Source: Parcubacteria bacterium GBS-2
GTDB taxonomy: Bacteria > Patescibacteriota > Minisyncoccia > Minisyncoccales > GBS-2
Direction: 5' to 3'
NCBI GenBank assembly: GCA_001443025.1
Contig: LEKP01000003.1
Coordinates: forward strand, 86,652 to 150,651
Length of the DNA stretch: 64,000 nucleotides
Shown: in pieces, positions 3,490 to 17,840 of the stretch
How the letters are laid out: each line of letters opens with the position of its first letter
Numbering within the stretch: position 1 is the first letter of the stretch
Made by a program: the position numbers and the translations under genes
The notes under the pieces: model-generated
Told to the model about the DNA's origin: nothing
Database searches by the model: none
Seen by the model: only the letters and a program-made list of their open reading frames with translations

Positions 3490-4346
3490 TGCGGTTTATA
3501 ATAATATCTTTTTGAAATTTCCCAAATTTTGAGAAAGTTACTATTGAAATATTCAATTTTTAATGAGATTTGAGGATTGTTAATAAATCTTCCTACGCGA
3601 TTAATTGCGTTTATTGTAGACATTAAAAAAACTGCAAAAAATCTTCCTTTTTTGTTTTTATTATCTTCTATAACTCCCTTAATTATAAATGGATCTCCAT
3701 GTATAAGGTGCGAAAGTAACGAATAAACAATTTTTAATTTATTTTCGTCTAAAAAAGGTAATGGTTTGATATTTTCTAAAAATTTATTGTATAACAAATT
3801 TGTATAACCATTTATTCTTTTGATTTTTTCGAAATTAAAATTTCTCAAACAATCCTCAATCATTTTCTTTTCCCTTTCGTCTAATCTATTTACTTCTTCT
3901 CTGTATAAATCATTAGTATATTGTTTCCATCGTTGATTATCTTTCCCCAAAATCAAGTAATCTATAAGTACCCGCAACAAACGAATTCTATGTTCTAACT
4001 CAGAATTTAAAAATGGAGAAAAGTGAGTATCTATATATTTAAAACTAAATTCGTAAATAGTTCGAAGTGAAAAATCAAGAAGAAAAGTGTTGTTGTTAGA
4101 AAATTGTAAAATATTTTTTAATAAAGTGAGAAATGAATCCAAGATAACTATATGAAAACATTCAAATAGTATTCGGTGTTGATAAAGTGGTTTCAATATC
4201 CCTATTTTCGTAGTTATCCATCCACTTTTTATCTCGGAAGGAGAAACAGCTGAATAAACACTGTCTTTTTTTAAAACATCTAATTCTTCCTTTAACAACT
4301 GTATAATTTTATCACAATATGTTAAAATTTCTTCTTCACTATTCAT
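3486..4346 (-). CDS. Hypothetical all-helical protein embedded between hsdS and hsdR
   Basis: 286-aa ORF. ATGA-type 4-nt overlaps at both ends (4343-4346 and 3486-3489). I recognise no family motif. Confidence 0.6.
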   Translation of the reverse strand: MNSEEEILTYCDKIIQLLKEELDVLKKDSVYSAVSPSEIKSGWITTKIGILKPLYQHRILFECFHIVILDSFLTLLKNILQFSNNNTFLLDFSLRTIYEFSFKYIDTHFSPFLNSELEHRIRLLRVLIDYLILGKDNQRWKQYTNDLYREEVNRLDEREKKMIEDCLRNFNFEKIKRINGYTNLLYNKFLENIKPLPFLDENKLKIVYSLLSHLIHGDPFIIKGVIEDNKNKKGRFFAVFLMSTINAINRVGRFINNPQISLKIEYFNSNFLKIWEISKRYYYKPQ

Positions 4347-5560
4347 ACCCTTATTTCTCCGCTCATTAATTTTGGTAAAAGCAAATCACGTAGAGTGGCT
4401 AAAGTTTGGTTTTCTTTTCTTATTTCGTCAATTTTTTCAATCATTGGTTGAATCATCTCGCTAAATTTTAGTGCTAATTCTGGCGGAGGAACAACAAACT
4501 TTTGAGCGGCAAATTCCGGCCAATGACCTTTATAATCGCTCATTTTGATTTTATCTTTTGTTAAATAGAAAACAAAGGTCGTGGGGTATCCATTTATTCC
4601 GACATATGGAATCACATTTTGAATACAAGAAAAATTAAAAGTAACTAAACGATAATAGCAAGTATGATTTGAAAAAACTGCAACTGGATTTTTTACGCTT
4701 GCTTTTACATCTGGCTCTCCATTATGATAACCTATAATCCCTGACTGTCCTTGATCTAATATTGGCACTTTGCCCGTGGGTAATGCTGTTTTATTGTCAT
4801 ATCTTTTACCCACTGGCAATCTCTTCGTAATTTCCATTATATTTTTTACCCCCCATCCCTCCGGAATTTTGCCTAATTCTGAATCTACGAATTTTACTTT
4901 TTCCCAACCTGGAAATCTAAATTTTACAAACCACTCCTTAAAAATTTCCTGTGCCATTTGCTCCAAAGTTTTAATAATTTTATTATTCAACTCAATCTTA
5001 TCATCAAAAGCAGAAAGAATATCAGCAATCCGTTTTTGTTCGCTTGGGTCTTCGGGAATTGAAAGTTCGATATTAGCAAGATCGCTTTTACGCAGATTAT
5101 TAATATTAGTTCCTTCTACTATTTCTTGAAGTTGATTTTTATAATTAGACGAACGAAGATAAAGATATAAGTATCTAGGTTCAATACTTTTTGGTCTTAT
5201 ACAGTACATAAAAGCGCCAAAGGATAATTGCTGATCAATTTGATATATTCTTGCGATTTTACCAACTAATTTTTTATTACCACTTGAAGCCACCACTACA
5301 ATATCATTTGTACGTAATTTTTGTTCGTCAGAAATTTTTGAATCTATCACATACATCAAATCATCAAGATTAAGGATTCCATTTTCTTTTATATTATTTG
5401 CACGAAGAATTGGTGTTCCTCCTTCAAACCATCTTAAACTTCTTTCTTCTTTACTGAAAGAAACGCCCCTAATTATATCCGCTACCTCCCCCAACCTCAC
5501 CTTCCGCCATCCTTTGGGTAAATTGTTTTGGTTTTTGTGTTTCATATTTGAAACATTCAT
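4343..5560 (-). CDS. hsdS: Type I R-M specificity subunit (HsdS), two target-recognition domains
   Basis: 405 aa. Central conserved helix SEQKRIADILSAFDDKIELNNKIIKTLEQMAQEIFKEWF and C-terminal LATLRDLLLPKLMSGEI. An alternative start lies at 5545. Confidence 0.85.
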   Translation of the reverse strand: MNVSNMKHKNQNNLPKGWRKVRLGEVADIIRGVSFSKEERSLRWFEGGTPILRANNIKENGILNLDDLMYVIDSKISDEQKLRTNDIVVVASSGNKKLVGKIARIYQIDQQLSFGAFMYCIRPKSIEPRYLYLYLRSSNYKNQLQEIVEGTNINNLRKSDLANIELSIPEDPSEQKRIADILSAFDDKIELNNKIIKTLEQMAQEIFKEWFVKFRFPGWEKVKFVDSELGKIPEGWGVKNIMEITKRLPVGKRYDNKTALPTGKVPILDQGQSGIIGYHNGEPDVKASVKNPVAVFSNHTCYYRLVTFNFSCIQNVIPYVGINGYPTTFVFYLTKDKIKMSDYKGHWPEFAAQKFVVPPPELALKFSEMIQPMIEKIDEIRKENQTLATLRDLLLPKLMSGEIRV

Positions 5561-5597
5561 GATTGTCCCACTTTTCGACTTGACATAAAATTTTGCT

Positions 5598-5661
5598 ATA
5601 ATAAAAGTGTAGGCAAATGCCTACTAATCACGCGGCCCGCGAAAGCGGGTTTTCGCTTTTT
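5598..5661 (+). ncRNA. Candidate small antisense RNA in the hsdM-hsdS spacer
   Basis: Plus-strand TTGTCC (5563-5568), 17-nt spacer, TAAAAT (5586-5591). Hairpin GTAGGC-AAAT-GCCTAC (5609-5624), then hairpin CCCGC-GAAA-GCGGG (5636-5649) followed by TTTTCGCTTTTT. Confidence 0.3.
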
Positions 5662-5807
5662 ATATAAGTTCTTTTTCCTCTATAAAATTTCCCAAAATCA
5701 ATATATAAATCTTTTATTTGATGCAACTCTTTTGAAACCATTCCTCGTACACCTACAACGTAAATTCTTTTTTTATATTTAATTTCGATTAAATCACTAA
5801 ACTTCAT
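5628..5807 (-). CDS. Small 59-codon ORF directly after the hsdM stop (possible gene fragment)
   Basis: ATG at 5805-5807, 1 nt after the hsdM stop. Own translation MKFSDLIEIKYKKRIYVVGVRGMVSKELHQIKDLYIDFGKFYRGKRTYIKSENPLSRAA, stop at 5628-5630. Below the ORF-track length cut-off; no family recognised. Confidence 0.2.
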   Translation of the reverse strand: MKFSDLIEIKYKKRIYVVGVRGMVSKELHQIKDLYIDFGKFYRGKRTYIKSENPLSRAA

Positions 5808-5808
5808 G

Positions 5809-7785
5809 TTAAAACCCTAATCTTTTCAAATTCTCCCTTATCTTCTCTTCCAATTCTCGACCTTGTCTAAAATATTCTTCCAATTCTGCTTTCAGTTTTT
5901 TCATTTTTTCTTCAAAAGGTATCCCATCATCTGGTGGCGGAGCTACTCCAACATATCTTCCAGGAGTTAAAACATAACCATTTTTTCTTATTTCTTCTAT
6001 TGTTGCGCTGTAACATAAACCCAGAATATTTTTGTAACCTTCGCCGAAATTCTCATTCCACAATTTTTGAATTTCTAAATTAATTTTTAACAACTCCTCT
6101 AATTCTTTAACTCTTTCTTCGATTTTTTTCTTGGTTTCTTTGTTGCGCAAATTAGTATTTAAAACTGAATTTAGTTCTTCAATTTCTTTTTCATATTTGT
6201 CTTTTAATATCCTCAATTCATCTTTTGTTTCTTCTATTACATTTTCACCCCGCCAAAGTTTTGCAATGGAAGAAATATAAATTATTTGGTCTTCGGTAAA
6301 TTCAACCTGCTTTCTTGAAATCGGTCTAAAAATTTCCCTTGCATCAATGAATAAAGTTTCGCCTGTCCGATTTCTAAATCTTCCATCTTTTTTGTTTTTA
6401 GTTAGAAACCACAAAGAAACCGGAAGCGAAACATTATAAAAAAGTTTTGGCGGGCAAGCGATTATTACATCTACTAAATCATCCTCAATAATCCTTTTTC
6501 TAATTTCACCTTCTCTTCCCCCAACTGCCAAAGCACCATTTGCCATAACAAAGCCTGCCATTCCATTTGGTGCTAAATGATAAATAAAGTGTTGAATCCA
6601 CATAAAGTTGGCGTTGCTGTCTGGAGGAATTCCATATTTCAATCTTGGGTCTTTTGGATCTATTTGATCTGCGCCCCATTCTGATTGATTAAACGGAGGA
6701 TTAGTGATAACAAAGTCTGCTCTTAAATCTGGGAATTGATCATCTAAAAGTGAATTTTTACCACCCCTAATATCCCCAACAATTCCTCTAATTGCTAAAT
6801 TCATCATACAAAGACGCCAAGTATTAATATTGAGTTCTTGCCCATAAAAACTAATTTTTGAAGGATCTTTTTTGTGAATTTCCAAAAATTTTGCGCTTTG
6901 AATGAACATTCCACCAGTTCCACAGGCAGGATCAAAAACTCGGCATCCTTCAAAGGGCTCCAAAATCTCAACTAAGAGTTTAACAATCGGGCGAGGGGTA
7001 AAAAATTCCCCACCACGTTTTCCTTCTGCAGAAGCAAATTGTCCTAAAAAGTACTCGTAAACACGACCTAATAGATCTTTTTCTTCGTACTCTCTATGGT
7101 CGAATTTTATTTTTGAAAAAATGTTTATAAGATCGCTTAATACATGGGGTTCCAAAGGAGTTTGAGCATAAATTTTTGGAAGGATATCTTTCAAAACTGG
7201 ATTTTCTTTTTCTATTTCTTCCATCGCTTCGTCAATTTTCTTTCCAATATCTGGAGTTAGAGAAAATTTTTGTAAATATTCCCATCTTGCTTTTTCTGGA
7301 ATATAAAAAATGCCCGCACTTTTGTATTGGTCTTTATCTTCGATAATAAATTTGCGGGCACTTTCATCTGGAACATAAAACTCTTTGTTATTAGGATCGC
7401 TTACCCATTCTTTTAACAATTCCCTTCTTTGATAAAAAGCGTCAGAAACATACTTTAGAAAAATTAAACCCAAAACAATATATTTGTAATCGCTAGGATC
7501 GAGACTCCCTCTTAATTTATCAGCTGCTTTCCATAGTTCTTTTTCAAAATCAATATCTCTTGCTGGTTTTGAGCTTAGTTCTAAAATTCTTTTTGTTGCC
7601 AACTTCTGTCTTTCTTCAATAAGTTTTTTTATTTCATCTGGCAGCTTATCTTTTGGAATTAAATAATCTCTACCTCGAGCAATCGCTGGAATTTCCCCAG
7701 ATTTAATCCGCTTGAAAATCGCTTGCCTCGTAACTCCTAAAATATTCGCTAATTCCTTAGTGGTATAGTAGTCCGTTTCTGCCAT
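5809..7785 (-). CDS. hsdM: Type I R-M N6-adenine DNA methyltransferase (HsdM) with an N-terminal excisionase-type HTH
   Basis: 658 aa. Motif I FDPACGTGGMF and motif IV NPPFNQSEW; HsdM_N-like LWKAADKLRGSLDPSDYKYIVLGLIFLKY. The first ~50 aa read TTKELANILGVTRQAIFKRIKSGEIPA. Confidence 0.9.
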   Translation of the reverse strand: MAETDYYTTKELANILGVTRQAIFKRIKSGEIPAIARGRDYLIPKDKLPDEIKKLIEERQKLATKRILELSSKPARDIDFEKELWKAADKLRGSLDPSDYKYIVLGLIFLKYVSDAFYQRRELLKEWVSDPNNKEFYVPDESARKFIIEDKDQYKSAGIFYIPEKARWEYLQKFSLTPDIGKKIDEAMEEIEKENPVLKDILPKIYAQTPLEPHVLSDLINIFSKIKFDHREYEEKDLLGRVYEYFLGQFASAEGKRGGEFFTPRPIVKLLVEILEPFEGCRVFDPACGTGGMFIQSAKFLEIHKKDPSKISFYGQELNINTWRLCMMNLAIRGIVGDIRGGKNSLLDDQFPDLRADFVITNPPFNQSEWGADQIDPKDPRLKYGIPPDSNANFMWIQHFIYHLAPNGMAGFVMANGALAVGGREGEIRKRIIEDDLVDVIIACPPKLFYNVSLPVSLWFLTKNKKDGRFRNRTGETLFIDAREIFRPISRKQVEFTEDQIIYISSIAKLWRGENVIEETKDELRILKDKYEKEIEELNSVLNTNLRNKETKKKIEERVKELEELLKINLEIQKLWNENFGEGYKNILGLCYSATIEEIRKNGYVLTPGRYVGVAPPPDDGIPFEEKMKKLKAELEEYFRQGRELEEKIRENLKRLGF

Positions 7786-9489: not shown

Positions 9490-10260
9490 TTACCTTAACT
9501 TTTTCAAAATTATTGAAATCAAAAAAATTAAAAAGCTAGAAATAACAATTAAGGGACCTGCTGGAAAGTTTGTGATTTTAAAAAGGAAAATTCCAAAAAT
9601 GGCAGCTAAAACTCCAAAAAGAGAAGATAAAATTTTAAAAGTTTTTAAGCTTTTGGAAAAATTTCTGGCTGAAGCCGCTGGCAAAGCAGTGAGACCTGCT
9701 ACCAAAAGCCCACCAACAAACTTTACACCCAATGCCACAATAGCTGAAATTGAAAGAAGGTAAAGAAATTGGTATTTTTTCAAATCAATTTTTTCTGCTT
9801 TTGCCAAATCCTCTGAAATTGAAATTAAAGTTAGCTTTGAATAAATTCTTTGAACCAAAAAGAGAACAAAAAGAGAGATTAAAACAATAATTAAGCTTTC
9901 TACTCTTCCAATTTTTGAAATATCGCCAACTAACGCCTCTTCAATTTCGTGTTCTGATAGAAACAAGAAAGTAACCGCTAAAGAAACAGAAAATAAAATT
10001 GCAATGATCGTTTCTGTGGGAAGTTTTGTTTTTTGTTCAAAAAACCAAATTAAAATTGAACCCAAAAATAAAAACAAAAAAGCTCCCAGAGAAATATCTT
10101 TTTGAAAAATTAAAGCTAAGGCAACCCCTGGTAATGCCAAATGAGAGAGAGGATCAGCAACAATCGTCATCTTCCTTGAAAGCATTAAAGACCCCAAATA
10201 TCCCGCTACCCCTCCAACAAAAATTGCTGAAATTAAAATTTCAAAAAAATTAACGGTCAT
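9490..10260 (-). CDS. znuB: Metal (Zn/Mn-type) ABC transporter permease, ABC-3 family
   Basis: 256 aa, multi-TM. N-terminus FEILISAIFVGGVAGYLGSLMLSRKMTIVADPLSHLALPGVALA is typical of ZnuB/TroC permeases. Confidence 0.75.
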   Translation of the reverse strand: MTVNFFEILISAIFVGGVAGYLGSLMLSRKMTIVADPLSHLALPGVALALIFQKDISLGAFLFLFLGSILIWFFEQKTKLPTETIIAILFSVSLAVTFLFLSEHEIEEALVGDISKIGRVESLIIVLISLFVLFLVQRIYSKLTLISISEDLAKAEKIDLKKYQFLYLLSISAIVALGVKFVGGLLVAGLTALPAASARNFSKSLKTFKILSSLFGVLAAIFGIFLFKITNFPAGPLIVISSFLIFLISIILKKLR

Positions 10261-11143
10261 GAAGGTATCTTTTGTTTTCTTTTATATATCTTTTAACAAA
10301 CCAATTAAGGAAAATGAATTCATCTCTTTTAACTTGAGAGCGCTCTAGAGCATTATAATAAGAATTTCTATCTTTGTAGGAAATGTTCAAAAGGGGGTAT
10401 TGGTATTTGTTCAAAACAAAATTCATCATTAATCTTGAAATTCTACCGTTTCCATCTGCAAAAGGATGAATAGTAACAAATTTTAGATGAACCAAGCCTG
10501 CCAGTTCTACAGGATGCAAAAAATTTTTATTTTTTTGATACCACTTAAAAAAATCTCTCAGCATCGGATAAATCTCAACTGGATAGGGTGGTTGAAATTT
10601 GCTCCCAGAAATTCTTACTTGAAAATTCCTTATTTTTCCTGCAATGTCAGGCTTTGTTTGCTCAAAAAGTTCTTTGTGCCATTTCAAAACTAAAGACAAA
10701 GAAAGATCTTTTTTAAGCTCAAGCATTTCTAAAAAAATCTTTTTGTGAGCCTCTGCTTCTTTGATATCATGCACTGGTTTTCCTTTTGGGGCAATCCCTC
10801 TTTCTAACAAATCTGCAGTTTCTCTTAGAGTTAAAGTAGAGCCTTCGATTCTTTGAGTGTCATAAGTAAATTGAATGGAGAAAGTTTCAATTTCTTTTTC
10901 TCTTGCTGATGGTGGCATTTTTTTCAATTCTTTCTGATAATTTTCCTTAATTTTTTCTAAAATTTTCTCCCATTTCTCCTTGAAAATTTGCTGAAAAAAT
11001 TTTCTTTTGATCTCTTCGATGTTTTCTGGAATTTTCTTTCCCAAATAAAGCGCTTTCTTTTCTACTTTTTTCCCTTTTCTTATTGTGTGTTCCAAATAAA
11101 AATAAGTTTCTCTTCCTTTAATTTTTTTTCTGATAGTAACCAT
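10250..11143 (-). CDS. fic: Fic-domain protein (AMPylase family) with an intramolecular inhibitory motif
   Basis: Fic core motif HPFADGNGRISR. N-terminal TQRIEG matches the (S/T)xxxE(G/N) inhibitory motif. 11-nt overlap with the znuB start. Confidence 0.85.
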   Translation of the reverse strand: MVTIRKKIKGRETYFYLEHTIRKGKKVEKKALYLGKKIPENIEEIKRKFFQQIFKEKWEKILEKIKENYQKELKKMPPSAREKEIETFSIQFTYDTQRIEGSTLTLRETADLLERGIAPKGKPVHDIKEAEAHKKIFLEMLELKKDLSLSLVLKWHKELFEQTKPDIAGKIRNFQVRISGSKFQPPYPVEIYPMLRDFFKWYQKNKNFLHPVELAGLVHLKFVTIHPFADGNGRISRLMMNFVLNKYQYPLLNISYKDRNSYYNALERSQVKRDEFIFLNWFVKRYIKENKRYLHDR

Positions 11144-11195
11144 ATTACCACTACAAATTTATCAAAATTTAAAAATTTTGCAAATTGTAGGGGTA

Positions 11196-11921
11196 TCAAT
11201 GTCCATGATAATGCTCATAAAATTTTATCTCTTGCCCATAAAGTTTTGATAAAATTTCTGGAGTTACTACTTCTTGTGGTTTTCCTTGACATACCGGACA
11301 TTTATTCAAGCAAATGACATAATCTGAAAATTTGAAAACAACGCTTAAGTCATGAGTAACTAAAATAATTGTTAAATTTTTTTCTTTCTTCAATTTTTCT
11401 AAAAGTTGATAAATTGTTTCCTCGCCTGAAATATCAATTCCAGTTGTTGGTTCGTCAAAAAGTAAAACTTCAGGTTCTCCAATTAAAGCCCAAGCCACCA
11501 AAATTCTTTGGTACTGCCCTGAAGAAATTTCCCCTAAATTTTTCTTTAAAAAGCTTTCCTCAAAACCAACTAGTGTTAAAACTTCTTTAATTTCTTTTTC
11601 GTTTTTTGTTTTTAACCTGAAAAATTCCTCGATCGAGATTGGAAAATCCTTGACAAAGGGTACTCTTTGTGGCACATACCCTATTTTTATTCCTTTTTTC
11701 CATTCAATTTTTCCTTCAAAAGGAAAAATGCCAAGTAAAGTCTTAAGTAACACTGTCTTTCCTGCTCCATTTGGTCCCAAGATCGTTAAAACCTCTCCCC
11801 TTTTCACTTCAAAAGATAAATTACAAATAATTAACTCATCATCTAATTTCACATTCAAATTTTCAACTTTCAAAATCGTTTCCATAGTTTTATTTAACCA
11901 CAACCTGGACAAATTGAACAT
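11196..11921 (-). CDS. znuC: Metal ABC transporter ATP-binding protein (ZnuC-like); the likely true start is METILKV at 11885
   Basis: Walker A GPNGAGKT, signature SSGQYQR, Walker B LLLFDEPTTGID. Confidence 0.85.
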   Translation of the reverse strand: MFNLSRLWLNKTMETILKVENLNVKLDDELIICNLSFEVKRGEVLTILGPNGAGKTVLLKTLLGIFPFEGKIEWKKGIKIGYVPQRVPFVKDFPISIEEFFRLKTKNEKEIKEVLTLVGFEESFLKKNLGEISSGQYQRILVAWALIGEPEVLLFDEPTTGIDISGEETIYQLLEKLKKEKNLTIILVTHDLSVVFKFSDYVICLNKCPVCQGKPQEVVTPEILSKLYGQEIKFYEHYHGH

Positions 11922-12112
11922 GTACCACCAGAACAGCTTCCGCTTCCTTTACTAGAGGGTCCCTTTGGTCGCCACTCATTACATTCTGTATTGCACTCTG
12001 GACATTTTGCCACTAATTTAAAACAGTACCCAAAAACAGAGCTTTGCCACTCTTTCTTTTGACCCTCTGCTTCAAAAAATTTATTGCAATTTGGACAGTA
12101 AAATTTCTCCAT
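11894..12112 (-). CDS. Small zinc-ribbon protein with a Cys/Gly/Ser-rich tail (FmdB-like)
   Basis: 72 aa. CPNC...CPEC zinc ribbon, then KGSGSCSGGTCSICPGCG at the C-terminus. Confidence 0.5.
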   Translation of the reverse strand: MEKFYCPNCNKFFEAEGQKKEWQSSVFGYCFKLVAKCPECNTECNEWRPKGPSSKGSGSCSGGTCSICPGCG

Positions 12113-12144: not shown

Positions 12145-13140
12145 CTATTTTTTGATTAAACCTATCTCTTTTAGAAAAATTTCCCAGTCTTTTGGTGTAT
12201 ATTTAAGTTTATTTATTGGTACCAGGTAACGAGTTTCTCGAACCTTCCCTAAATATGGAAGCATCTTTCCCTCTTTAACTGGTTTATGTTCAGATGTTTT
12301 GAAATAACCATTAATGAATCCTTTAAGTTTTGTTTGAATTTCTCCGCACTTATAGTTTTTAATTCTAGTTCTCATTTCTTGCAAATAATTTTTAAATCTC
12401 TTGTCTGTTGGTGGAATTTTTACTTGTGCAAAATCAAGAAGTCGTGAAAATCCACAAACCTCTATAAAAAATTGCAAAAGAATAGGCTGGGGGACAGAAC
12501 ATTTTACGCTTATTCCATAATCATATCCTATGCCCGCTTCTGCCCAAACACCGGTTAAAGAAGGTGAAGTTTTTATACTTACTCTTTTGTCAGCATTTAC
12601 AATATCATTTCGATATTTTTCAATTTGTGTTGAAATTTCCCAATCTAATTCAATTTTTGTAAAAAACTTCTCTTTAAAAAATTTCTTTACCATTATTTCC
12701 CCCAATTTTCCTACAAACTGATCTATCAAAATTGATTCAAAAGTTCTTCGTCTTTCTCTAAAACCTTTTTGAGTAATCGTAGCTTTCGTGCCTCCCTCAA
12801 ACATTTGATATGTGATTTCTATGCAAAAAATTAAAAGTCTTACTATATCTTCCTCTCCTATGTTTACAATAATCGTGTTTGGTAAAAGTTTTTCATCAAT
12901 CCATTTTAAAACATTGTCGTTTCTTATAAATAATTTTCTTTTCTTTGTCTCGGTTACGTTAAAATCATTTACTCTGCAAGCAGAAAGGAGTAATTCTCCA
13001 AGCTCATCGAATTCAAAAATTATTCCATATTTTTCTTTGATAAACTCTACGAGCGATTGAATATATTTGTACTCTTTCTTTTTAAACTTCGAAGGACTAT
13101 TTAAATCAGTTTGTGAGAGAAAGTTTCCTTTTGAATTCAT
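12145..13140 (-). CDS. Putative type II restriction endonuclease (partner of the adjacent methyltransferase)
   Basis: 331 aa. 4-nt overlap with the MTase gene. Possible PD-(D/E)xK-like ELD...x19...SIK. Assignment rests on context. Confidence 0.45.
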   Translation of the reverse strand: MNSKGNFLSQTDLNSPSKFKKKEYKYIQSLVEFIKEKYGIIFEFDELGELLLSACRVNDFNVTETKKRKLFIRNDNVLKWIDEKLLPNTIIVNIGEEDIVRLLIFCIEITYQMFEGGTKATITQKGFRERRRTFESILIDQFVGKLGEIMVKKFFKEKFFTKIELDWEISTQIEKYRNDIVNADKRVSIKTSPSLTGVWAEAGIGYDYGISVKCSVPQPILLQFFIEVCGFSRLLDFAQVKIPPTDKRFKNYLQEMRTRIKNYKCGEIQTKLKGFINGYFKTSEHKPVKEGKMLPYLGKVRETRYLVPINKLKYTPKDWEIFLKEIGLIKK

Positions 13141-14462
13141 TTTTGTTTTTTTAGGACTACTAAATGTTCTGTTTTAATTCGACTATCTTTCATACCTGAA
13201 GCAGGGTTGACTTTCGATTCAAACATAACCCGCGACAGAATTTTATCTACAAATGTTACTTCATGACTCCACCCGAATTCTTTCAGATGTTCTACGATTA
13301 TTTCATCAATGGGAATGGGGTTGTTTCTTACTTTTGCTGGCCCAACAAAAATACACATGTAATTTTCAACCTTCTCACCAAGCCTGGAAAAGCAAGAAAG
13401 GATTGCGTGAAAATACTGATCATAAAGAGATCTCAAGTGTTTTTCTTTGATTTTTTTTCTGTATTCAAAAAATGTCGAAGAATAAATCTTAATCTTTGGT
13501 ACTTCTCTGTAAGGTATTTCTTTATTACTGAGATTTTTTATGTACGCTTCGCTATAGCCTAACCAAAAAAGCTCAAGTTTAGTTGATCTTATATATTCTT
13601 GAGCCTGTAAGTAAGGAGGAGAAGTTATTAAAATATCCACTTTCTTGTCAAGCTCTGCAGTTAAAGTATCAATACCTGCTTTCACTTCATATTCTACTTC
13701 CTTTGGGGAAAGCTTTTCATACTCAACAAGTTTATTATAAAGCGAAAAAATTTCCTGCTTTAACATTCGGTAGAACACATTTTTCCAATTTCCTTTTAAT
13801 AAAGTTTCAATTTTTTTCCTTGAATATTTAGACCTATATAATTTGTGAACTTTTTCGTCACTCCAGCTGAAATATTTTGTTACTTTTAAAAGAGGAATAA
13901 GCAAGAGATATTTTTTTTCTTTCTCTTTTTCAGAGTGCACAAAGCCCCATGCTTTAGAAAGGATCGGAAGAAATTGTTCTGGAAACCAGTAATTTAAATT
14001 GCTCCAAGAAGGAATGAACTCTTTATTGGAATTCTTAATACAATCAATGAGATCCAATAACTCATTCACTTTCATTTTTGGTCGTCCTAATGTAGCGGTA
14101 TCATGAATGATGTTTAATATCGGATTTAAATCCCATAATTGGTAATTATAACCATAAACTTTAGCAGTCAAACCTGCAGTTCCATATCCAGCAAAGGGAT
14201 CGAATATTCTCATTCCAGGAACACCATACTTTTTTAAAACAAAGGCAATTACCTGAGGAATAAATTTGGCTGGATACTTATAAATAGAAAATACTCCATA
14301 TGTAGTATAAGGAATTTCTGGAATCGTATTTCGAAATAATACGGAAATTTTTTTCCCGTTTTGAAAACTTTCTGCGTTATTTTGTTGAGGTTCCGAAGTA
14401 ATCTCTTTAATATTAGAAAATTTTAGATTCAATTGAGAGTTTTTAAGTTTTTCATAATCCAT
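13137..14462 (-). CDS. DNA methyltransferase (N6-adenine or N4-cytosine), motif order I then IV
   Basis: 441 aa. Motif I IFDPFAGYGTAG (aa ~86) and motif IV ITSPPYLQAQEY (aa ~280). Confidence 0.8.
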   Translation of the reverse strand: MDYEKLKNSQLNLKFSNIKEITSEPQQNNAESFQNGKKISVLFRNTIPEIPYTTYGVFSIYKYPAKFIPQVIAFVLKKYGVPGMRIFDPFAGYGTAGLTAKVYGYNYQLWDLNPILNIIHDTATLGRPKMKVNELLDLIDCIKNSNKEFIPSWSNLNYWFPEQFLPILSKAWGFVHSEKEKEKKYLLLIPLLKVTKYFSWSDEKVHKLYRSKYSRKKIETLLKGNWKNVFYRMLKQEIFSLYNKLVEYEKLSPKEVEYEVKAGIDTLTAELDKKVDILITSPPYLQAQEYIRSTKLELFWLGYSEAYIKNLSNKEIPYREVPKIKIYSSTFFEYRKKIKEKHLRSLYDQYFHAILSCFSRLGEKVENYMCIFVGPAKVRNNPIPIDEIIVEHLKEFGWSHEVTFVDKILSRVMFESKVNPASGMKDSRIKTEHLVVLKKQK

Positions 14463-14590: not shown

Positions 14591-14869
14591 TTAAGGTTTT
14601 AAAATTTTTATTGCCTTTCCCTCAATTAAGGCCTTGGCAACTTTTTTTCTGGCAGAGGTTAAAATTCGACAAAGAGTGGCTTGGGAAATTTTCATTCTCT
14701 TTGCTGCCTCAATTTGGTTTAGTCCTTCCAAATCGCAAAGTCTTAGAGTTTCAATTTCATCCAAAGATAACTCAACTTCATCTAACATTGAAAGGGGGAC
14801 TGCTCTCGGTTTAAAATAAACTGCTTTTGGATCGAATTGAACCCTTCTTGGTTTAATGGGTCTTACCAT
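14591..14869 (-). CDS. DUF134 (UPF0251) putative DNA-binding protein
   Basis: MVRPIKPRRV...FKP...LSLDEIETLRLCDLEGLNQIEAAKRMKISQATLCRIL, a sigma region-4-like HTH typical of DUF134. Confidence 0.8.
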   Translation of the reverse strand: MVRPIKPRRVQFDPKAVYFKPRAVPLSMLDEVELSLDEIETLRLCDLEGLNQIEAAKRMKISQATLCRILTSARKKVAKALIEGKAIKILKP

Positions 14870-14870
14870 A

Positions 14871-15908
14871 TTATTCTCTAGTTAAATGAATTTTACAATT
14901 TGGGCAAATCAAACTTGAGCAAGGAACTCCAGGTTGATGTTCAACTCTATAGCCACATTTTTTGCAAACACAATATCCCCCGGGTCCTCTGCCTCTAAAT
15001 CTCCTTCTCCAACAAAAACCTTTTTTGAAACCAAAAGCTACAAGAGGAGGTTTATAAAAACCAGTTTCAACTTCGTGGCTTTTAACTTGAATTGCAACAT
15101 AAACTAAGTTTTTAATTTCTTTCATTAATCTTTCTCTTAAATTTTCTGAAATTTTTGTTGCGGTCTCAACGTCCAAATTTCTTGGCAAATTTATTTCCAA
15201 ATTGGCAGTAAAAACAGAACCCTTCTTTTGAGTTTTTAAATCTGAAATTTCAATCCCTTGAGATTTTACAATCTCTTTTATTTTCTCTTCAACTTCAGGC
15301 GGGGCTGAAACATCAAGTAAAGAATCGATGGCTTCTTTTCCAATTGAAAAAGATTCTTTAACAATATAAAGACCGATTAAAAAAGCTAAAATTGAATCGG
15401 TAAAAATCCAATATTTATTCAAAACTAAACCAGCAAAAACTGCCAAGGATGCAAAAACATCAATTCTTGAATGAACTCCATCTGAAATTAAAGCAACCGA
15501 ATTTTCTTTTTTCCCAAAATGAATTTTTAATCTTGCCATTATTTCATTCAAAATTGCAGAAAATCCCATAACTGAAAGTGCCAAAATTGGAAGTTGAATC
15601 GCTGTTGGATTCTTAAATTTTTGGTATGCCTCAAAAATTATCCAAATTCCAGTAAAAAACAAAATTAAAGTAATCAAAAATCCTGCCAAAACCTCAAATT
15701 TAAAATGGCCATAAGGATGCTTTTTGTCAGCTGGCTTTTTTGAAATTTTAATCCCTAAAAATGAAATCAAAGAAGAAAAAATGTCTGCCAAGGAATGAAA
15801 ACCCTCGGCTAAAACAGCAGTTGATTTTGATAAAATCCCCGCAGAAATTTTTATTCCAGCCAAAATAACATTTGCCAATACCGAAATTTTCGCAATTTTT
15901 TCTTTCAT
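14871..15908 (-). CDS. Cation diffusion facilitator (CDF) transporter with an Arg/Gly linker and a C-terminal C4 zinc-ribbon tail
   Basis: HSLAD and HSRID (HxxxD) motifs in the TM helices. Tail reads RRRFRGRGPGGYCVCKKCGYRVEHQPGVPCSSLICPNCKIHL. Confidence 0.85.
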   Translation of the reverse strand: MKEKIAKISVLANVILAGIKISAGILSKSTAVLAEGFHSLADIFSSLISFLGIKISKKPADKKHPYGHFKFEVLAGFLITLILFFTGIWIIFEAYQKFKNPTAIQLPILALSVMGFSAILNEIMARLKIHFGKKENSVALISDGVHSRIDVFASLAVFAGLVLNKYWIFTDSILAFLIGLYIVKESFSIGKEAIDSLLDVSAPPEVEEKIKEIVKSQGIEISDLKTQKKGSVFTANLEINLPRNLDVETATKISENLRERLMKEIKNLVYVAIQVKSHEVETGFYKPPLVAFGFKKGFCWRRRFRGRGPGGYCVCKKCGYRVEHQPGVPCSSLICPNCKIHLTRE

Positions 15909-16834
15909 AAAATTTTTTCAATTATTTTCTCAAATTTTTTTTGAAGTTTGGGGTTTATTTTTGCTATTGGCTTCATTTTTAAAGTAGATTTTAAAAAATC
16001 CTTATGGTAGGGAATTTTCCCCAAAATTTCAATTTTATTTTCTTTGGCGAACTTTTCTATTTCTTTTGAAAAATTTTTTGCTAGATCGAATTTATTAATA
16101 ACAATTCCGTGTTGAATTTTAAAATGATTTGCTAAATATAAAACTCTTTTTAGGTCAAAAAGGGCAGAAGGTGTGGGTTCTGTCACTGCTATAATATAAT
16201 CTGTTCCGACTAAAGAAGCAATCACTGGACATCCAATTCCAGGGGCAGAATCTATAATCATAATTTCTGCTTTTATTCTCTCTCCAATTTCATCGGCTAC
16301 TTTTCTTACTTCATTCACTACTTCTCCAGAAGAAAGTTCTCCTAATTTCAGTTCGCTTGAAACCAAATCGACATTATAATTTTTTCCAACAAAAATTTTC
16401 CCAATTTCTTTTTTGCCTTCTTTTATTGCTCCGAAAGGACAAGCCAAAACGCAGGCTTTACAACCAATACAAGAATCTTTCAAGAAAGCGGGATATTTTC
16501 CTTTGACAAAAACGATGGCATTTTGCTTGCAAACTTTTGCGCACTCTCCGCATTTTTTGCATTTTTCAAAATCAAATTTAGGAATGAACTGAAAAACTTT
16601 TTTGAATTCTTTTCTTTTTATTGATAACAACAAATGGCAATTTGGACATTCTGCATCGGCATCAACCAAAATTGTCTTTTTGCTTTTCGCAAATTCCACT
16701 GCCAAAGAAGTTGCCACCATCGACTTTCCCACTCCCCCTTTCCCTCCATTAACTGCTATTTTCACCCCCACACCAAAATAGGCAACCTTGGTGTTATTTA
16801 ACGAAGTCAATTCTTGTTTGGTGTGGGGGTTCAT
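15905..16834 (-). CDS. MinD/ParA-type P-loop ATPase with an inserted 2x[4Fe-4S] ferredoxin domain
   Basis: Deviant Walker A GKGGVGKS. Cluster motifs CKKCGECAKVC and CIGCKACVLACP. Confidence 0.8.
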   Translation of the reverse strand: MNPHTKQELTSLNNTKVAYFGVGVKIAVNGGKGGVGKSMVATSLAVEFAKSKKTILVDADAECPNCHLLLSIKRKEFKKVFQFIPKFDFEKCKKCGECAKVCKQNAIVFVKGKYPAFLKDSCIGCKACVLACPFGAIKEGKKEIGKIFVGKNYNVDLVSSELKLGELSSGEVVNEVRKVADEIGERIKAEIMIIDSAPGIGCPVIASLVGTDYIIAVTEPTPSALFDLKRVLYLANHFKIQHGIVINKFDLAKNFSKEIEKFAKENKIEILGKIPYHKDFLKSTLKMKPIAKINPKLQKKFEKIIEKIL

Positions 16835-16837
16835 AAT

Positions 16838-17173
16838 TTAAAAAATATCTTCTTTTGATAATTCTTTTAATTTGTTTTCTTCAAATTTTTTAAGATTTTC
16901 TAAAATCGTGCCTTCAATTGCTTTAAAAACTTTAATTTTATAATTTTTAAATTTTTCAAAAGCCCTCGGTCCCAAACTGAAAACAATAACTACATCGACA
17001 TTTTGTCTTTTTAAAAAATCTGGCGGAAGTCCTTTCCCCTTGAGCTCTGGATTTTCGAAAACCTCAAAAATTTCTTTTTCAGTATCGAAAATCAAAAAAT
17101 TCTTTGCTCTTCCAAAATGCAAAGCCACCTTATCTTCTAAATTGTTTCCGTCAGTAGCGAATGCTATTTTCAT
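16838..17173 (-). CDS. NifB/NifX-like (dinitrogenase FeMo-cofactor binding fold) protein
   Basis: 111 aa. MKIAFATDGNNLEDKVALHFGRAKNFLIF... is the typical family N-terminus. Confidence 0.75.
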   Translation of the reverse strand: MKIAFATDGNNLEDKVALHFGRAKNFLIFDTEKEIFEVFENPELKGKGLPPDFLKRQNVDVVIVFSLGPRAFEKFKNYKIKVFKAIEGTILENLKKFEENKLKELSKEDIF

Positions 17174-17508
17174 TCGAATTTTTCCAATTTTCCTTGAATA
17201 AATTTCTCAATTATTTCTTTTACTTTCCCTTCTCCCTGATAAACCTCAATATTAAATTGTCTTAAAACATCGAAGGCCCTTGGTCCAATATTTTTTGTGA
17301 TTACTGCTTTCACATCCTTTTCGGCCATCAATTGAGCGGCGAAAATTCCTGCCCCTCCTGTTCTTTTTTCAGCTTCATTTTCAATTGCTTCAAAACTTTT
17401 AATCTTTCCGTTCTCAATCGCGACAATGAGAAAATAGGGACACCTGGCAAACACTTCGCTTACTGTGTCTTCTAAACTTTTTCCGTTTGCTGAAATTGCA
17501 ATTTTCAT
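17170..17508 (-). CDS. NifB/NifX-like protein, second paralog
   Basis: 112 aa. MKIAISANGKSLEDTVSEVFARCPYFLIV...GGAGIFAAQLMAEKDVKAVI. Confidence 0.75.
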   Translation of the reverse strand: MKIAISANGKSLEDTVSEVFARCPYFLIVAIENGKIKSFEAIENEAEKRTGGAGIFAAQLMAEKDVKAVITKNIGPRAFDVLRQFNIEVYQGEGKVKEIIEKFIQGKLEKFE

Positions 17509-17738
17509 TTTTTCTTTTCTAATTCTTTCAATCTTTTCTCAATTGCCTTCATTTCTTCCTTTAAAGCTTTAAGTTCATCCAAAAGCATTTCTTTTTCTTC
17601 TTCGGGAGTAATTTTCTCAAAATATTCAGGAAATGCCCACCAACCCCTCGGCAACCAAGGATATCGCCAGCATCTCCACCAGTATTTTCTAAATTCTGGA
17701 TAGGCCCACCAAGGACCTCCTCCCATTCCCCAGGGCAT
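17505..17738 (-). CDS. DUF5320-like small protein (Gly/Trp-rich N-terminus, coiled-coil C-terminus)
   Basis: MPWGMGGGPWW... then EEKEMLLDELKALKEEMKAIEKRLKELEKKK. First gene of the coupled operon. Confidence 0.55.
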   Translation of the reverse strand: MPWGMGGGPWWAYPEFRKYWWRCWRYPWLPRGWWAFPEYFEKITPEEEKEMLLDELKALKEEMKAIEKRLKELEKKK

Positions 17739-17840
17739 AGTTTTTAAATTTTTTATAATTTTGACCTTTTTATTATGAATATATATTCAAAATAAAACTG
17801 TTTGTCAAGAGAGAAATTCTAATTCTAAATTTGTGTTTTT

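Follow-up and report, generated by a model that had tools for sequence, protein, structure and literature searches.

A putative iron-sulfur buffering and metal efflux operon with a candidate autorepressor in an ultra-small bacterium

The window analysed here, a stretch of 64,000 nucleotides of DNA, contains an operon whose nearest characterised relatives are the ORP complex of Desulfovibrio (PMC6345978, PMC8359166), IssA of Pyrococcus furiosus, which stores iron-sulfur as thioferrate (PMC5524996), and the YiiP/FieF exporter; to call such a neighbourhood functionally uncharacterised, as the original prediction did, is therefore an overstatement. Like the operon, the ORP complex comprises single-domain NifX-fold proteins and MinD-type ATPases with two [4Fe-4S] ferredoxin motifs, and both are anaerobe-specific and operon-clustered (PMC6345978). 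In D. vulgaris the complex is tied to cell morphology, not to storage (PMC8359166); loss of orp expression leads to morphological defects and MrpORP is found at the cell pole (PMC6345978, PMC8359166). The operon here lacks the Mrp::NifX two-domain protein, encodes a single ATPase where ORP has the Orp3/Orp4 pair, and has a promoter of sigma-70 type that carries a DUF134 palindrome, whereas ORP is controlled by sigma-54/OrpR/IHF with the site GGGCGYRTTTTGCGCCC (PMC8359166). Its CDF exporter and Cys6His module are additions that are undescribed for ORP. With IssA it shares the IPR003731/PF02579 globular domain, and MTH1175, a tail-less IssA-type protein assigned to the IssA clade, was used to model IssA (PMC5524996). 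The cationic, aromatic and Gly/Pro-rich chemistry of the IssA tail is also found in the operon, but on separate polypeptides (the N-terminal half of the DUF5320-type protein and the CDF linker) and not on the NifX-fold proteins, for which thioferrate binding is putative. No CDF or DUF134 partner has been described for IssA.

The transporter, the regulator and the Cys6His module have counterparts of their own. YiiP/FieF (structures from S. oneidensis and E. coli) and MamB/MamM have the same six-TM core and cytoplasmic dimerisation domain as the CDF protein here, which differs from them in equivalog scores far below the cutoffs and in a transport site A of HD-HD instead of DD-HD. It also has an extra cationic linker and Cys6His module at its C-terminus, replaced by a NifX domain in one locus (L092). 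The three-helix HTH core of DUF134 superposes on ECF sigma region 4 and the DeoR HTH at 0.6-1.0 Å over 40-50 residues. Unlike an ECF sigma factor, DUF134 has no sigma region 2, carries extra N- and C-terminal beta strands, is predicted to target a 20-bp palindrome over the -10 box instead of the -35 element, and in some members is fused to a Cys6His module. Multi-copy Cys6His-type modules occur in large proteins, not encoded in the window, that also have PDZ, trypsin-like protease, NifX and magnetochrome domains; they recall magnetosome proteins of the MamE, MamP and FmpB type, and FmpB of D. magneticus RS-1 has magnetochrome, PDZ and NifX domains (PMC4287615). Among the copies read in such large proteins, P0374 has both Cys28 and Cys45 replaced, whereas the canonical module of P0458 has lost only Cys28, and we regard the relationship as a lead and not as a claim of membership.

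Gene content of the operon

Six open reading frames occupy positions 14591-17738 of the minus strand, with junctions of -4, -4, +3, -4 and +1 nt as read from the sequence: three ATGA overlaps, a 3-nt gap (TAAATTATG) and a 1-nt gap (TAATATG). The 3-nt gap precedes the ATPase gene and is conditional on ATG 16834 being the start; a restart of translation at GTG 16765 would widen it to about 72 nt. No terminator-like site was found at any of the operon's gene junctions, and the single one within the CDF gene is within chance expectation. The six-gene minus-strand operon originally predicted is thereby confirmed in its coordinates and junctions (overlaps of 4 nt, gaps of at most 3 nt), and the Pfam domains assigned to the six genes were all found.

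The first gene (17505-17738, minus strand) encodes a DUF5320-type protein of 77 aa that matches PF17253 at 31.9 bits (Pfam cutoff 27), although only over profile positions 38-99, which form the coiled-coil C-terminal half. W, R, G and P abound in the N-terminal 42 residues, which include 9 W, 16 aromatic and 6 cationic ones and have a pI of 9.4, and orthologues are present in three loci (L085, L096, L097). The next two genes encode NifX-fold proteins with Nitro_FeMo-Co (PF02579) domains. Protein A (112 aa, 17170-17508, minus strand; 81 bits) has a single Cys, within the motif FARCPYF, and its best solved relative is MTH1175 (1EO1, E = 5e-25); the D. gigas orange protein 2WFB matches at 8e-10. 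Protein B (111 aa, 16838-17173, minus strand; 76 bits) has no Cys and matches the same two structures at 4e-13 and 3e-4. Both proteins and the ATPase give partial matches to the MrpORP model.

The MinD/ParA-type P-loop ATPase (15905-16834, minus strand) combines CbiA/ParA with two Fer4 motifs (Pfam), the 2x[4Fe-4S] ferredoxin domain being an insert, and its translation contains GGKGGVGKS, CKKCGECAKVC and CIGCKACVLACP. No solved structure with this architecture of ATPase and inserted ferredoxin was found. The protein is 309 aa long from ATG 16834, or 286 aa from GTG 16765, and immediately 3' of that ATG the window carries a 69-nt in-frame hairpin insertion relative to a 92%-related contig. The inserted element (16761-16833, minus strand) consists of 65 nt at 16765-16829 with a TGAA duplication on its flanks; it has 13-bp terminal inverted repeats (CCCCCACACCAAA), folds as RNA at -28 kcal/mol (z = -4.1) and is missing from L085 in the alignment.

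The CDF gene (14871-15908, minus strand) has Cation_efflux and ZT_dimer domains and a C-terminal tail that matches no family. Residues 1-279 (15072-15908, minus strand) form the core of six TMs and a cytoplasmic dimerisation domain, with a TIGR01297 score of 245 bits (cutoff 82). The top equivalog models are MamB (153), FieF (150), MamM (147) and MntE (144), each below its own cutoff, and the nearest PDB entry is S. oneidensis YiiP (1e-29). Transport site A, H38/D42/H146/D150, is HD-HD like that of Zn-selective ZnT-type CDFs, as opposed to the DD-HD of YiiP. A cationic, aromatic and Gly-rich linker spans about residues 280-305 (14994-15071, minus strand); over the 33 residues 280-312 the pI is 11.0, and 8 of them are cationic, 8 aromatic and 7 Gly. 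This linker and the N-terminal half of the DUF5320-type protein have the composition described for the IssA tail, a resemblance that is compositional only. The C-terminal 40 residues (306-345; 14874-14993, minus strand) form a zinc-ribbon-like Cys6His module without a Pfam or NCBIfam match, modelled by AF2 at a pLDDT of about 88, for which Foldseek returned nothing stronger than weak matches to zinc-ribbon and rubredoxin-like folds. Its residues C313, C315, C318, H324, C330, C335 and C338 are invariant across 100 stand-alone homologues. The last gene (14591-14869, minus strand) encodes a DUF134/UPF0251 HTH protein of 92 aa, which matches PF02001 at 86.9 bits.

Co-conservation and fusions across genomes

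Gene-neighbourhood statistics show that the neighbourhood recurs outside this genome: in Patescibacteria and DPANN archaea, and on one Brocadiia and one Thermococcus-like contig. A lack of such co-conservation would have refuted the original prediction, which this result leaves standing. Among 21 species-level loci of the tail-bearing CDF from Patescibacteria and DPANN archaea, DUF134 adjoins the transporter in 16, compared with 0 of 59 tail-less CDFs (Fisher p = 8e-13). Of the 21, 12 contain NifX or MinD-Fer4 and 13 contain DUF5320, and neither DUF134 nor NifX was found at any of the 59 tail-less loci. Gene order is identical in six loci (L085, L004, L009, L013, L020, L097) and permuted in DPANN archaea. 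Because the order recurs and DUF134 is so associated with this CDF, the arrangement is more than chance. The CDF inside the neighbourhood is no one-off: a dedicated subfamily with the Cys6His tail accompanies DUF134 and NifX/MinD-Fer4. When loci were sampled from the DUF134 side, DUF5320 was present in 3/3, the CDF in 2/3, and NifX with MinD-Fer4 in 2/3.

The exporter, the regulator and the NifX proteins have one Cys6His module in common through fusion. DUF134::module fusions occur in L012, L021 and L022, NifX::module fusions in L022 and L092, and a CDF::NifX fusion of 445 aa in L092; direct fusion of the CDF to NifX is confined to one lineage, on the Thermococcus-like contig. The module also stands alone in six loci (L012, L024, L088, L091, L092, L096), and a Methanomassiliicoccales cluster additionally contains NifU_N and a DUF59-type FeS_assembly_P gene. 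The metal or metallocluster trafficking or storage role originally proposed is supported by the CDF::NifX fusion and by the company that the tailed CDF keeps with NifX/MinD-Fer4.

The modules of the cassette are nevertheless separable, so that they do not have to work as a single machine. Five loci have CDF-DUF134 and neither NifX nor ATPase (L006, L016, L025, L087, L095), NifX, ATPase and DUF134 occur without the CDF in L096, and the NifX and ATPase genes look truncated in L005. In L087, whose CDF is 84% identical, only CDF-DUF134 stands behind this promoter with its palindrome, and the genes that come next are ArsR, thioredoxin, ArsP and ABC-3. The four upstream genes of the operon are facultative.

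The operon also adjoins an ABC-3 importer of the Zn/Mn/Fe type. The region 9490-12112 (minus strand, Pfam; membership at lower confidence) is probably an ancestral downstream extension of the operon that insertions have since broken up. On the minus strand it encodes a Cys-rich protein of 72 aa (11894-12112), an ABC ATPase (11196-11921) and an ABC-3 permease (9490-10260), with a Fic gene (10250-11143) inserted between the last two. The 72-aa gene directly follows DUF134 in L002, the DUF134 stop overlaps the start of the ABC ATPase, with the ABC-3 permease next, in L097, and L087 has the same set.

Promoter, palindrome and DUF134

The promoter of the operon has a -35 hexamer TTGACA (17803-17808, minus strand, read from the sequence) and a 17-nt spacer to TATATA. 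The candidate operator is a strandless 20-bp palindrome at 17773-17792, TTATGAATATATATTCATAA = TTTTGAATATATATTCATAA, whose core 14-mer (17776-17789) includes the -10 hexamer TATATA (17780-17785). Because the core doubles as the -10 hexamer, its conservation partly reflects promoter function. At up to 2 mismatches it is the sole site within the 64-kb window; exact copies of the 14-mer number 7 across 374 kb of related loci and 0 across 993 kb of loci with control CDFs, and TGRRTRTATAYYCA occurs 15 times where 0.03 are expected. A PWM, derived from the very sites that it scores, detects the site in 23/32 sources with DUF134 compared with 3/66 without. The same promoter precedes the six genes in the window and in L085, and CDF-DUF134 alone in L087.

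Across bacteria and archaea, the palindrome lies upstream of the clusters almost only where DUF134 is present. It covers the -10 box in bacteria, at a constant 10-12 nt from TTGACA in more than 12 loci, and lies just downstream of BRE/TATA in archaea, often as a tandem pair. On the GC-rich Brocadiia contig, TTGACA-17-TATAAT overlaps TGAACATATGTTCA directly upstream of the DUF134 gene. Two loci (L007, L015) have the palindrome and no DUF134 gene within 10 kb. The DUF134 protein also gives sub-threshold Pfam matches to Sigma70_r4 and Sigma70_ECF, and although a sequence search found no solved relatives, helices 36-83 of its AF2 model (pLDDT 82) can be overlaid at 0.6-1.0 Å on both ECF sigma region 4 and the DNA-binding domain of DeoR. 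Given that the palindrome over the -10 box recurs almost only alongside DUF134, this sigma-region-4-like HTH protein is likely an autorepressor; the palindrome, the HTH-like model and the DUF134::Cys6His fusions lend in silico support to the regulatory role first proposed for it.

Proposed function and competing explanations

We put at about even chances a reading in which the six genes, as one sigma-70-type transcription unit, serve to buffer and hand over iron-sulfur or metal-sulfide material in the cytoplasm, are coupled to a valve for metal efflux, and are repressed by the product of the last of them. The gene content and operon structure, the conservation of the cassette in Patescibacteria and DPANN archaea, the module shared through fusion and the palindrome that accompanies DUF134 are computed results; the steps that follow are inferred. 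The two IssA/ORP-type NifX-fold proteins, with at most one Cys, would hold anionic Fe-S species non-covalently. The DUF5320-type protein, probably oligomerising through its coiled coil, may supply in trans the cationic, aromatic and Gly-rich segment that elsewhere is IssA's own tail, and the Orp3/Orp4-type MinD ATPase would use ATP and two [4Fe-4S] clusters to load, unload or reduce the NifX-held material. Surplus divalent metal would be exported by the YiiP/FieF-type CDF, whose cytoplasmic Cys6His module may be a metal or cluster sensor or a docking site. The metal handled or exported would be Fe or Zn; our best guess is Fe(II), against which stand the HD-HD site A shared with Zn-type CDFs and the ABC-3 Zn/Mn/Fe importer next door. 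A DUF134 dimer is predicted to sit on the 20-bp palindrome, covering the -10 box and transcription start, and to let go on a metal or cluster signal, which, as DUF134 in the window has no Cys6His domain of its own, may be relayed through the module of the transporter.

The strongest competitor, a reading we hold distinctly less probable at roughly one chance in four, is that two independent modules share only a promoter: a self-contained CDF-DUF134 cassette that exports zinc or some other thiophilic metal and regulates itself, possibly with the ABC-3 importer, and an unrelated DUF5320/NifX/NifX/ATPase passenger block of ORP type that was repeatedly gained or lost. It would explain why L087 has the promoter and palindrome directly ahead of CDF-DUF134 and then ArsR, thioredoxin, ArsP and ABC-3, and why NifX and ATPase are missing in L006, L016, L025 and L095, the CDF in L096, and intact NifX and ATPase genes apparently in L005; the Zn-type HD-HD site, the zinc-ribbon-like fold of the module and the translational coupling of DUF134 to the ABC ATPase in L097 fit it as well. 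However, the CDF::NifX and NifX::module fusions physically bind exporter, module and NifX together, the module occurs in CDF-less clusters with NifX, ATPase, NifU and DUF59, none of 59 tail-less CDFs is found with these genes, and the top CDF equivalog models are linked to iron or manganese, with ZitB at 82 bits only. It is rather improbable, by comparison, that the palindrome is the box of another regulator encoded elsewhere, such as Fur, Zur or PerR, with DUF134 as, for example, a sigma-region-4-like adaptor or activator. In favour of this, the inverted repeat is AT-rich and has the composition of Fur-family boxes, its sole control-locus match (15.4 bits, L058) has a Fur/PerR homologue 4 kb away, L007 and L015 have the site and no DUF134 within 10 kb, and the nearest fold to DUF134, sigma region 4, is normally a -35-contacting monomer. 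Yet Fur-family query sequences, which did find the control homologues, found none in the 64-kb window or any DUF134 locus; Fur-family boxes have a 7-1-7 geometry, whereas the site here is 7-0-7; and the site goes with DUF134 in bacteria and archaea alike, also in a GC-rich genome, where it is immediately upstream of the DUF134 gene.

An ORP-type complex for cell division or morphology, as proposed for Desulfovibrio, with the MinD-like ATPase as positioning factor and the CDF incidental, seems more doubtful still. The MinD/ParA class and Orp3/Orp4 architecture of the ATPase count for it, as do the shape defects on orp loss and the polar MrpORP of D. vulgaris (PMC6345978, PMC8359166), but none of the loci examined couples the cassette to a cell-division gene, the partners that recur have to do with metals (CDF, Cys6His module, NifU, DUF59, Mrp, rhodanese, ABC-3 importer), and the division link in Desulfovibrio is itself called a hypothesis (PMC8359166). 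Least credible, to the point of being nearly negligible, is a role of the NifX-like proteins in maturation of a nitrogenase-type cofactor. The Pfam name Nitro_FeMo-Co and a weak partial match of protein B to TIGR02663 nifX (22 bits) point that way, against a nifX cutoff of 112 bits and closest relatives (MTH1175, IssA-type and ORP proteins) that occur in contexts without nitrogen fixation. In line with the original remark that no nitrogenase genes are in view, none of the eight NifD/K- or NifH-sized ORFs tested in the rest of the window encodes a Nif protein or nitrogenase. Nitrogen fixation is not known from the host lineages, whose genomes are very small.

The combined buffering and efflux reading would apply to an uncultivated, very small bacterium, and to a cassette that is common to ultra-small bacteria and archaea.

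The operon and its neighbourhood

ORF calls and Pfam searches on the window place six minus-strand ORFs at 14591-17738. In order of transcription they encode a DUF5320 protein (17505-17738; PF17253, 31.9 bits against a cutoff of 27, covering profile positions 38-99 only and thus the C-terminal coiled-coil half alone), NifX-fold proteins A (17170-17508, 112 aa) and B (16838-17173, 111 aa; Nitro_FeMo-Co PF02579, 81 and 76 bits), a P-loop ATPase (15905-16834; CbiA/ParA with two inserted Fer4 motifs), a CDF transporter (14871-15908; Cation_efflux PF01545, 167 bits, and ZT_dimer PF16916, 32.6 bits) and DUF134 (14591-14869; PF02001, 86.9 bits against a gathering score of 27). Read from the sequence, the gene junctions are three ATGA overlaps, one 3-nt gap and one 1-nt gap. 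A terminator scan of the operon found no terminator-like site at any of them, and the sole coding-strand site of this kind lies inside the CDF gene, within chance expectation. The domains, the tight junctions and the lack of a junction terminator together confirm the six-gene, tightly coupled operon of the original prediction. An Rfam scan of the whole window at gathering thresholds returned three tRNAs only, with no NiCo, Mn or other riboswitch before the operon, and riboswitch control was rejected on this result.

Compared with L085, a related locus with a 92% identical CDF, the window has a 69-nt in-frame insertion directly after the ATPase start codon. The inserted element (16761-16833) is 65 nt long, ends in GC-rich inverted repeats of 13 bp (CCCCCACACCAAA) and comes with a duplication of 4 nt, TGAA; it is absent from L085, has no second copy elsewhere in the window and folds into a hairpin predicted at -28 kcal/mol (z = -4.1). 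In this it resembles a miniature inverted-repeat element. Should translation restart at GTG 16765, the ATPase junction would be about 72 nt rather than 3 nt.

We surveyed neighbourhoods with a CDF profile scan, one genome per species, which gave 21 loci whose CDF bears a C-terminal tail (the Cys6His module described below) and 59 loci with an ordinary CDF; six-frame ORFs of all surveyed loci were then searched with the window proteins. The tail-bearing loci belong to Patescibacteria or DPANN archaea, save one bin labelled Chlamydiota and one labelled Bdellovibrionales. DUF134 adjoins the tail-bearing CDF in 16 of the 21, NifX and/or the MinD-Fer4 ATPase occur in 12 and DUF5320 in 13, whereas neither DUF134 nor NifX was found in any of the 59 ordinary-CDF loci, a few of which give short matches, confined to ferredoxin domains (Fisher p = 8e-13 and 5e-9, tail-bearing against ordinary loci; the former is for the DUF134 association). 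These statistics across species indicate that the CDF is a true member of the DUF134/NifX/ATPase/DUF5320 neighbourhood. Of three loci sampled starting from DUF134, one has the order DUF5320 - CDF - DUF134, L096 has DUF5320 - module - NifX - ATPase - ATPase - DUF134 without a CDF, and L097 has DUF5320 - NifX - NifX - ... - ATPase - CDF - DUF134 - ABC - ABC-3. L087, a locus with 84% CDF identity, has solely CDF-DUF134 behind the same promoter. The core pair of the cassette is CDF-DUF134. L005 is from Patescibacteria bacterium UBA6257; between its DUF5320 and CDF genes (2186-2680), NifX is matched over only 38 residues and the ATPase over only 126, which suggests that the ORP-like genes are decaying while CDF-DUF134 is kept.

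The operon lies in a window of 30-35% G+C. It is flanked upstream by murB (divergent), tyrS and tRNA-modification genes. Downstream come R-M genes and the gene of a small Cys-rich protein, then an ABC-3 type transporter interrupted by a Fic gene, and a type I R-M system. Near-identical contigs (99.6-99.9% over the CDF-DUF134 genes) come from JGI samples GBSSSed77C and GBSCSSed77C, prefixes that we take to mean Great Boiling Spring sediment at 77 °C; the nearest named CDF and DUF134 homologues are from the Patescibacteria group, Minisyncoccia and Kuenenbacteria. A type II R-M-like pair at 12145-14462, consisting of a 441-aa methyltransferase (PADLOC MTase_II, 6e-26) and a 331-aa protein without a family match, stands between DUF134 and the 72-aa Cys-rich gene; it is an insertion, since its two flanking genes adjoin in the related locus L002. 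Further on, a Fic-domain gene at 10250-11143 (PADLOC PDC-S04/SoFic, ~1e-30) separates an ABC ATPase (11196-11921) from an ABC-3 permease (9490-10260). The region looks like an insertion hotspot for defence genes (the R-M pair, Fic and the type I R-M system at 451-7785).

The small Cys-rich protein has 70-72 aa and two CPxC motifs, and is encoded at 11894-12112 in the window, 2543-2761 in L002, 8443-8658 in L087 and 1159-1371 in L097. It ends in a Cys-rich CSGGTCSIC in the first three and in CPLC in L097, matches no Pfam or NCBIfam family, and is found near CDF, DUF134 and ABC-3 genes in each of its loci; it could be a metallochaperone or metallothionein-like. A different insertion is seen in L001 (1-3783), a contig from the same sample type with a CDF protein 100% identical to that of the window. 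At the junction equivalent to 15908, a TOMM-like cluster is inserted between ATPase and CDF; it encodes a precursor of 69 aa rich in Cys and Gly, together with YcaO, nitroreductase-like and GNAT proteins. The contig start repeats 137 nt (94% identical) that run from the 3' end of the ATPase gene into the initial ~60 nt of the CDF gene. Elsewhere in the window we noted an archaeal-type S-adenosylmethionine synthetase (34256-35455; PF01941, 475 bits) and, at 50655-52226, a coupling-protein domain of TrwB-like type that includes a treble-clef zinc finger.

The CDF transporter and its Cys6His module

The transporter belongs to the CDF superfamily (TIGR01297, 245 bits against a cutoff of 82) and is of the YiiP/FieF exporter type, with YiiP as its best PDB match (1e-29). 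Its best NCBIfam equivalogs are MamB, FieF, MamM and MntE, all scoring below their cutoffs (153/350, 150/420, 147/350 and 144/500, respectively). Alignment to S. oneidensis YiiP gives transport site A as H38/D42 and H146/D150, an HD-HD site that differs from the DD-HD tetrad of TM2 and TM5 in YiiP. A cationic linker (pI 11) is followed by a Cys-rich segment, GPGGYCVCxxCGYxxxHxxGVPCxxxxCPxC, whose conservation extends over its entire length in the 120 best homologues.

This tail, a module of about 40 residues (306-345), is not covered by any Pfam or NCBIfam model. A search with a tail profile returned at least 1,861 clusters at 90% identity, most of them 'hypothetical proteins' of 45-80 aa; at 50% identity the clusters number 2,346 for an E limit of 1e-3 and 846 for a limit of 1e-10. 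Nine positions (C28, C30, C33, H39, C45, C50, P51, C53 and R59) are invariant in 100 stand-alone members and the window tail. AlphaFold models residues 25-60 as a small beta-hairpin knuckle domain (pLDDT ~88), for which Foldseek gives weak matches (E >= 0.6), all to zinc-ribbon or rubredoxin-type units: the MCM zinc ribbon, the adenylate kinase lid, desulforedoxin and rubrerythrin.

The module stands alone in six related loci (L012, L024, L088, L091, L092 and L096), and is fused to DUF134 in L012, L021 and L022, to NifX in L022 and L092, and to the CDF in the window. L092, a contig annotated as Thermococcus sp., also encodes a 445-aa CDF::NifX fusion with a W/R/G-rich C-terminal tail. Taken together, the CDF::NifX and module fusions argue that the exporter, the NifX-fold proteins, the regulator and the module may act in concert.

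Large proteins from outside the window (P0365, P0366, P0369, P0371, P0374, P0458 and P0477; 290-1430 aa) hold two to five Cys6His-type modules each, together with PDZ, trypsin-like protease, NifX, rhodanese or magnetochrome domains. Cys28 and Cys45 are both replaced in P0374, and Cys28 alone in the canonical module of P0458. Compared by domain make-up alone, their architecture is reminiscent of MamE, MamP and FmpB (PMC4287615). Two of these proteins come from MAGs of Candidatus Riflebacteria, a phylum reported to contain magnetotactic bacteria (PMC7602337).

DUF134 and a palindrome over the promoter

The promoter upstream of the first gene consists of TTGACA, 10 nt and then TTTTGAATATATATTCATAA at 17773-17792, the single such palindrome in the window, with the -10 hexamer TATATA at its centre (TTGACA-17-TATATA). 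We located it by alignment; a simple consensus scan missed it because TATATA breaks the scan's position-6 rule. The exact 14-mer core has seven copies in 374 kb of related loci and none in 993 kb of control loci, and the degenerate site TGRRTRTATAYYCA has 15 copies against 0.03 expected and occurs once in the controls. A PWM with the consensus TTATGAATATATATTCATAA finds sites of at least 14 bits in 23 of 32 DUF134-encoding sources against 3 of 66 without DUF134 (p = 3e-12); the sensitivity figure is circular, the PWM having been built from the same sites, but this does not affect the specificity figure. Nine sources were missed: short fragments lacking the promoter, the locus L006, and the Thermococcus-like contig, which has another palindrome (TGCATATGCA).

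In bacterial loci the site always lies 10-12 nt after TTGACA and covers the -10 box and the transcription start, and in DPANN loci it closely follows a BRE/TATA-like element and is often doubled, the two tandem copies being spaced by 22-33 bp. Repressors typically occupy positions of both kinds. On a GC-rich Brocadiia contig, the sequence immediately preceding the DUF134 gene contains TTGACA-17-TATAAT with TGAACATATGTTCA overlapping it, which argues against a purely compositional origin of the palindrome. That the site might be a Fur-family box instead we regard as a minor possibility: the two are similar in composition, but Fur-family operators are 7-1-7 inverted repeats and the geometry here is 7-0-7, and searches of the window and of every DUF134 locus gave no Fur or PerR homologue.

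In its AlphaFold model (pLDDT 82), DUF134 is built around a core of three helices, which can be superposed to within 0.6-1.0 Å on ECF sigma region 4 and on the DNA-binding domain of DeoR. Close homologues are named 'predicted DNA-binding protein (UPF0251 family)' by JGI. A sequence search gave no homologous solved structure, and a literature search for DUF134/UPF0251 (COG1342, PF02001) gave incidental mentions and no functional work. In the Thermococcus-like contig L092, the stretch between the divergent DUF134 gene and the cluster (850-931) is without the consensus site and contains TGCATATGCA and a second TGCACA-containing repeat, and the operator-region site of L012 is intermediate in form (TTATGTGCATATGCTCATTA); to judge from these variants, the operator may have drifted together with its regulator.

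Downstream of the palindrome lies the motif AAAGGTCR, which we considered as an operon-specific leader hairpin and rejected, because the hairpin is not conserved and the motif precedes unrelated genes. It has 14 copies in the window against 5.8 expected (among them 17762-17769, 23128, 28226, 28699 and 33164) and occurs in 11 related bacterial loci; several copies are intergenic, 20-35 nt upstream of start codons and immediately behind -10-like boxes. It would seem to be a motif spread through the genomes of these bacteria, in leaders or close to transcription starts, and is not confined to the operon.

Relation to ORP and IssA, and possible function

The closest solved relative of NifX-fold proteins A and B is MTH1175 (5e-25 and 4e-13), which has been treated as an IssA-type protein (PMC5524996); ORP of D. 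gigas (2WFB) is more distant (E = 8e-10 and 3e-4). Both proteins end without a tail and have at most one Cys, which favours non-covalent binding of an inorganic species. A nitrogenase-cofactor reading was rejected: TIGR02663 nifX scores 22 bits against a cutoff of 112, and eight NifD/K- or NifH-size ORFs elsewhere in the window are housekeeping or mobile-element proteins with no Nif protein among them, in agreement with the earlier remark that no nitrogenase genes are in view. The ATPase translation contains CKKCGECAKVC and CIGCKACVLACP; the gene is present once in the window and twice in the related loci L020, L022, L024, L088 and L096. A Methanomassiliicoccales cluster combines module, NifX and ATPase with Mrp, NifU_N and a DUF59-type FeS_assembly_P gene. 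The DUF5320 protein starts with a W-rich MPWGMGGGPWW, common to L085, L092, L096 and L097, where the family form is MPRGDGTGP...GRGxGYC, and its N-terminal half has 9 W, 16 aromatic and 6 cationic residues among 42 (pI 9.4). For DUF5320, COG1149 and COG1433, our literature search found incidental mentions only.

In the Desulfovibrio ORP complex, the MinD-type ATPases Orp3 and Orp4 carry two [4Fe-4S] motifs, the NifX-fold protein Orp8 binds a Mo/Cu-sulfide cluster non-covalently and MrpORP serves as an Fe-S carrier (PMC6345978); expression is confined to low redox potential (PMC8359166). The operon shares with D. vulgaris ORP a MinD/ParA ATPase with two [4Fe-4S] ferredoxin motifs and single-domain Nitro_FeMo-Co proteins like Orp8. 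However, it contains no two-domain Mrp/NBP35::NifX fusion like MrpORP (Orp9), NF041136 (MrpORP) being matched only partially (43, 41 and 64 bits against a cutoff of 450). The ORP genes have a sigma-54 promoter, the enhancer-binding protein OrpR and the palindrome GGGCGYRTTTTGCGCCC, in contrast to TTGACA-17-TATATA and an AT-rich palindrome here, and the operon adjoins no EBP gene (its neighbours are murB and R-M genes). Lacking MrpORP and sigma-54/OrpR control, the cassette is not a member of the D. vulgaris ORP type; by analogy, it is best described as a putative system that works like ORP and IssA outside that type. IssA of Pyrococcus furiosus, likewise of NifX fold, keeps a store of iron and sulfide in the form of anionic thioferrate with the help of a tail that is cationic, aromatic and Gly-rich, and it is able to rebuild [4Fe-4S] ferredoxin (PMC5524996). 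The window's NifX-fold proteins contain a globular IPR003731/PF02579 domain, possibly of the IssA clade, but lack the tail that IssA bears on the same polypeptide; a comparable chemistry occurs in trans, in the N-terminal half of DUF5320 and the CDF linker, a likeness that is compositional only.

The reading we favour, to which we give about an even chance, is that the cassette would be a module for buffering and handing over Fe-S or metal sulfide, linked to an efflux valve and under autorepression by DUF134. It draws on the relatedness to ORP and IssA, the low Cys content, the tail-like composition, the Fe-S partner genes and the YiiP/FieF-type CDF. The HD-HD transport site, as in Zn-selective CDFs, the separability of the modules across loci and the ABC-3 importer that is co-operonic in L097 point to the main rival, in which CDF-DUF134 would be an independent Zn-type efflux cassette; we consider this rather unlikely. 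A third reading, which we think improbable, sees in the cassette a minimal system, able to move horizontally, with which ultra-small, host-dependent bacteria and archaea would store or biomineralise iron sulfide, with Cys6His as the common currency and transporter-coupled control by DUF134. A MamB/FieF-like exporter, an IssA-type NifX, a cationic coiled-coil DUF5320 scaffold and an ATP-driven Fe-S ATPase would then share one inorganic Fe-S polymer, and the Cys6His module would be a redox-active or cluster-binding unit that tethers the NifX proteins to the transporter. The transporter-borne module would control the DUF134 repressor by direct contact, and this transporter-coupled transcription control would operate unchanged on bacterial and archaeal promoters.

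Our literature search found no description of a dedicated CDF subfamily, of the Cys6His module and its fusions, of a DUF134 palindrome conserved across Bacteria and Archaea, or of a split arrangement of an IssA-like tail. The storage, movement and detoxification of iron and sulfide in strict anaerobes are poorly understood; to our knowledge, no function has so far been assigned to the Desulfovibrio ORP complex, and IssA is the only Fe-S store known. The cassette connects both with an exporter in the membrane and with a regulator of its own, in organisms whose minimal genomes retain few dispensable genes. It also offers three handles for further work. One is a predicted 20-bp operator for the DUF134/UPF0251 family, for which no function has been published; another is the 40-residue Cys6His module, which comprises about 2,300 sequence clusters and is covered by no database model; the third is a set of natural fusions (CDF::NifX, DUF134::module and NifX::module) that predict contact partners. 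Should DUF134 recognise one and the same site in bacteria and archaea, protein and site would form a compact regulator-operator pair able to function in both transcription systems.
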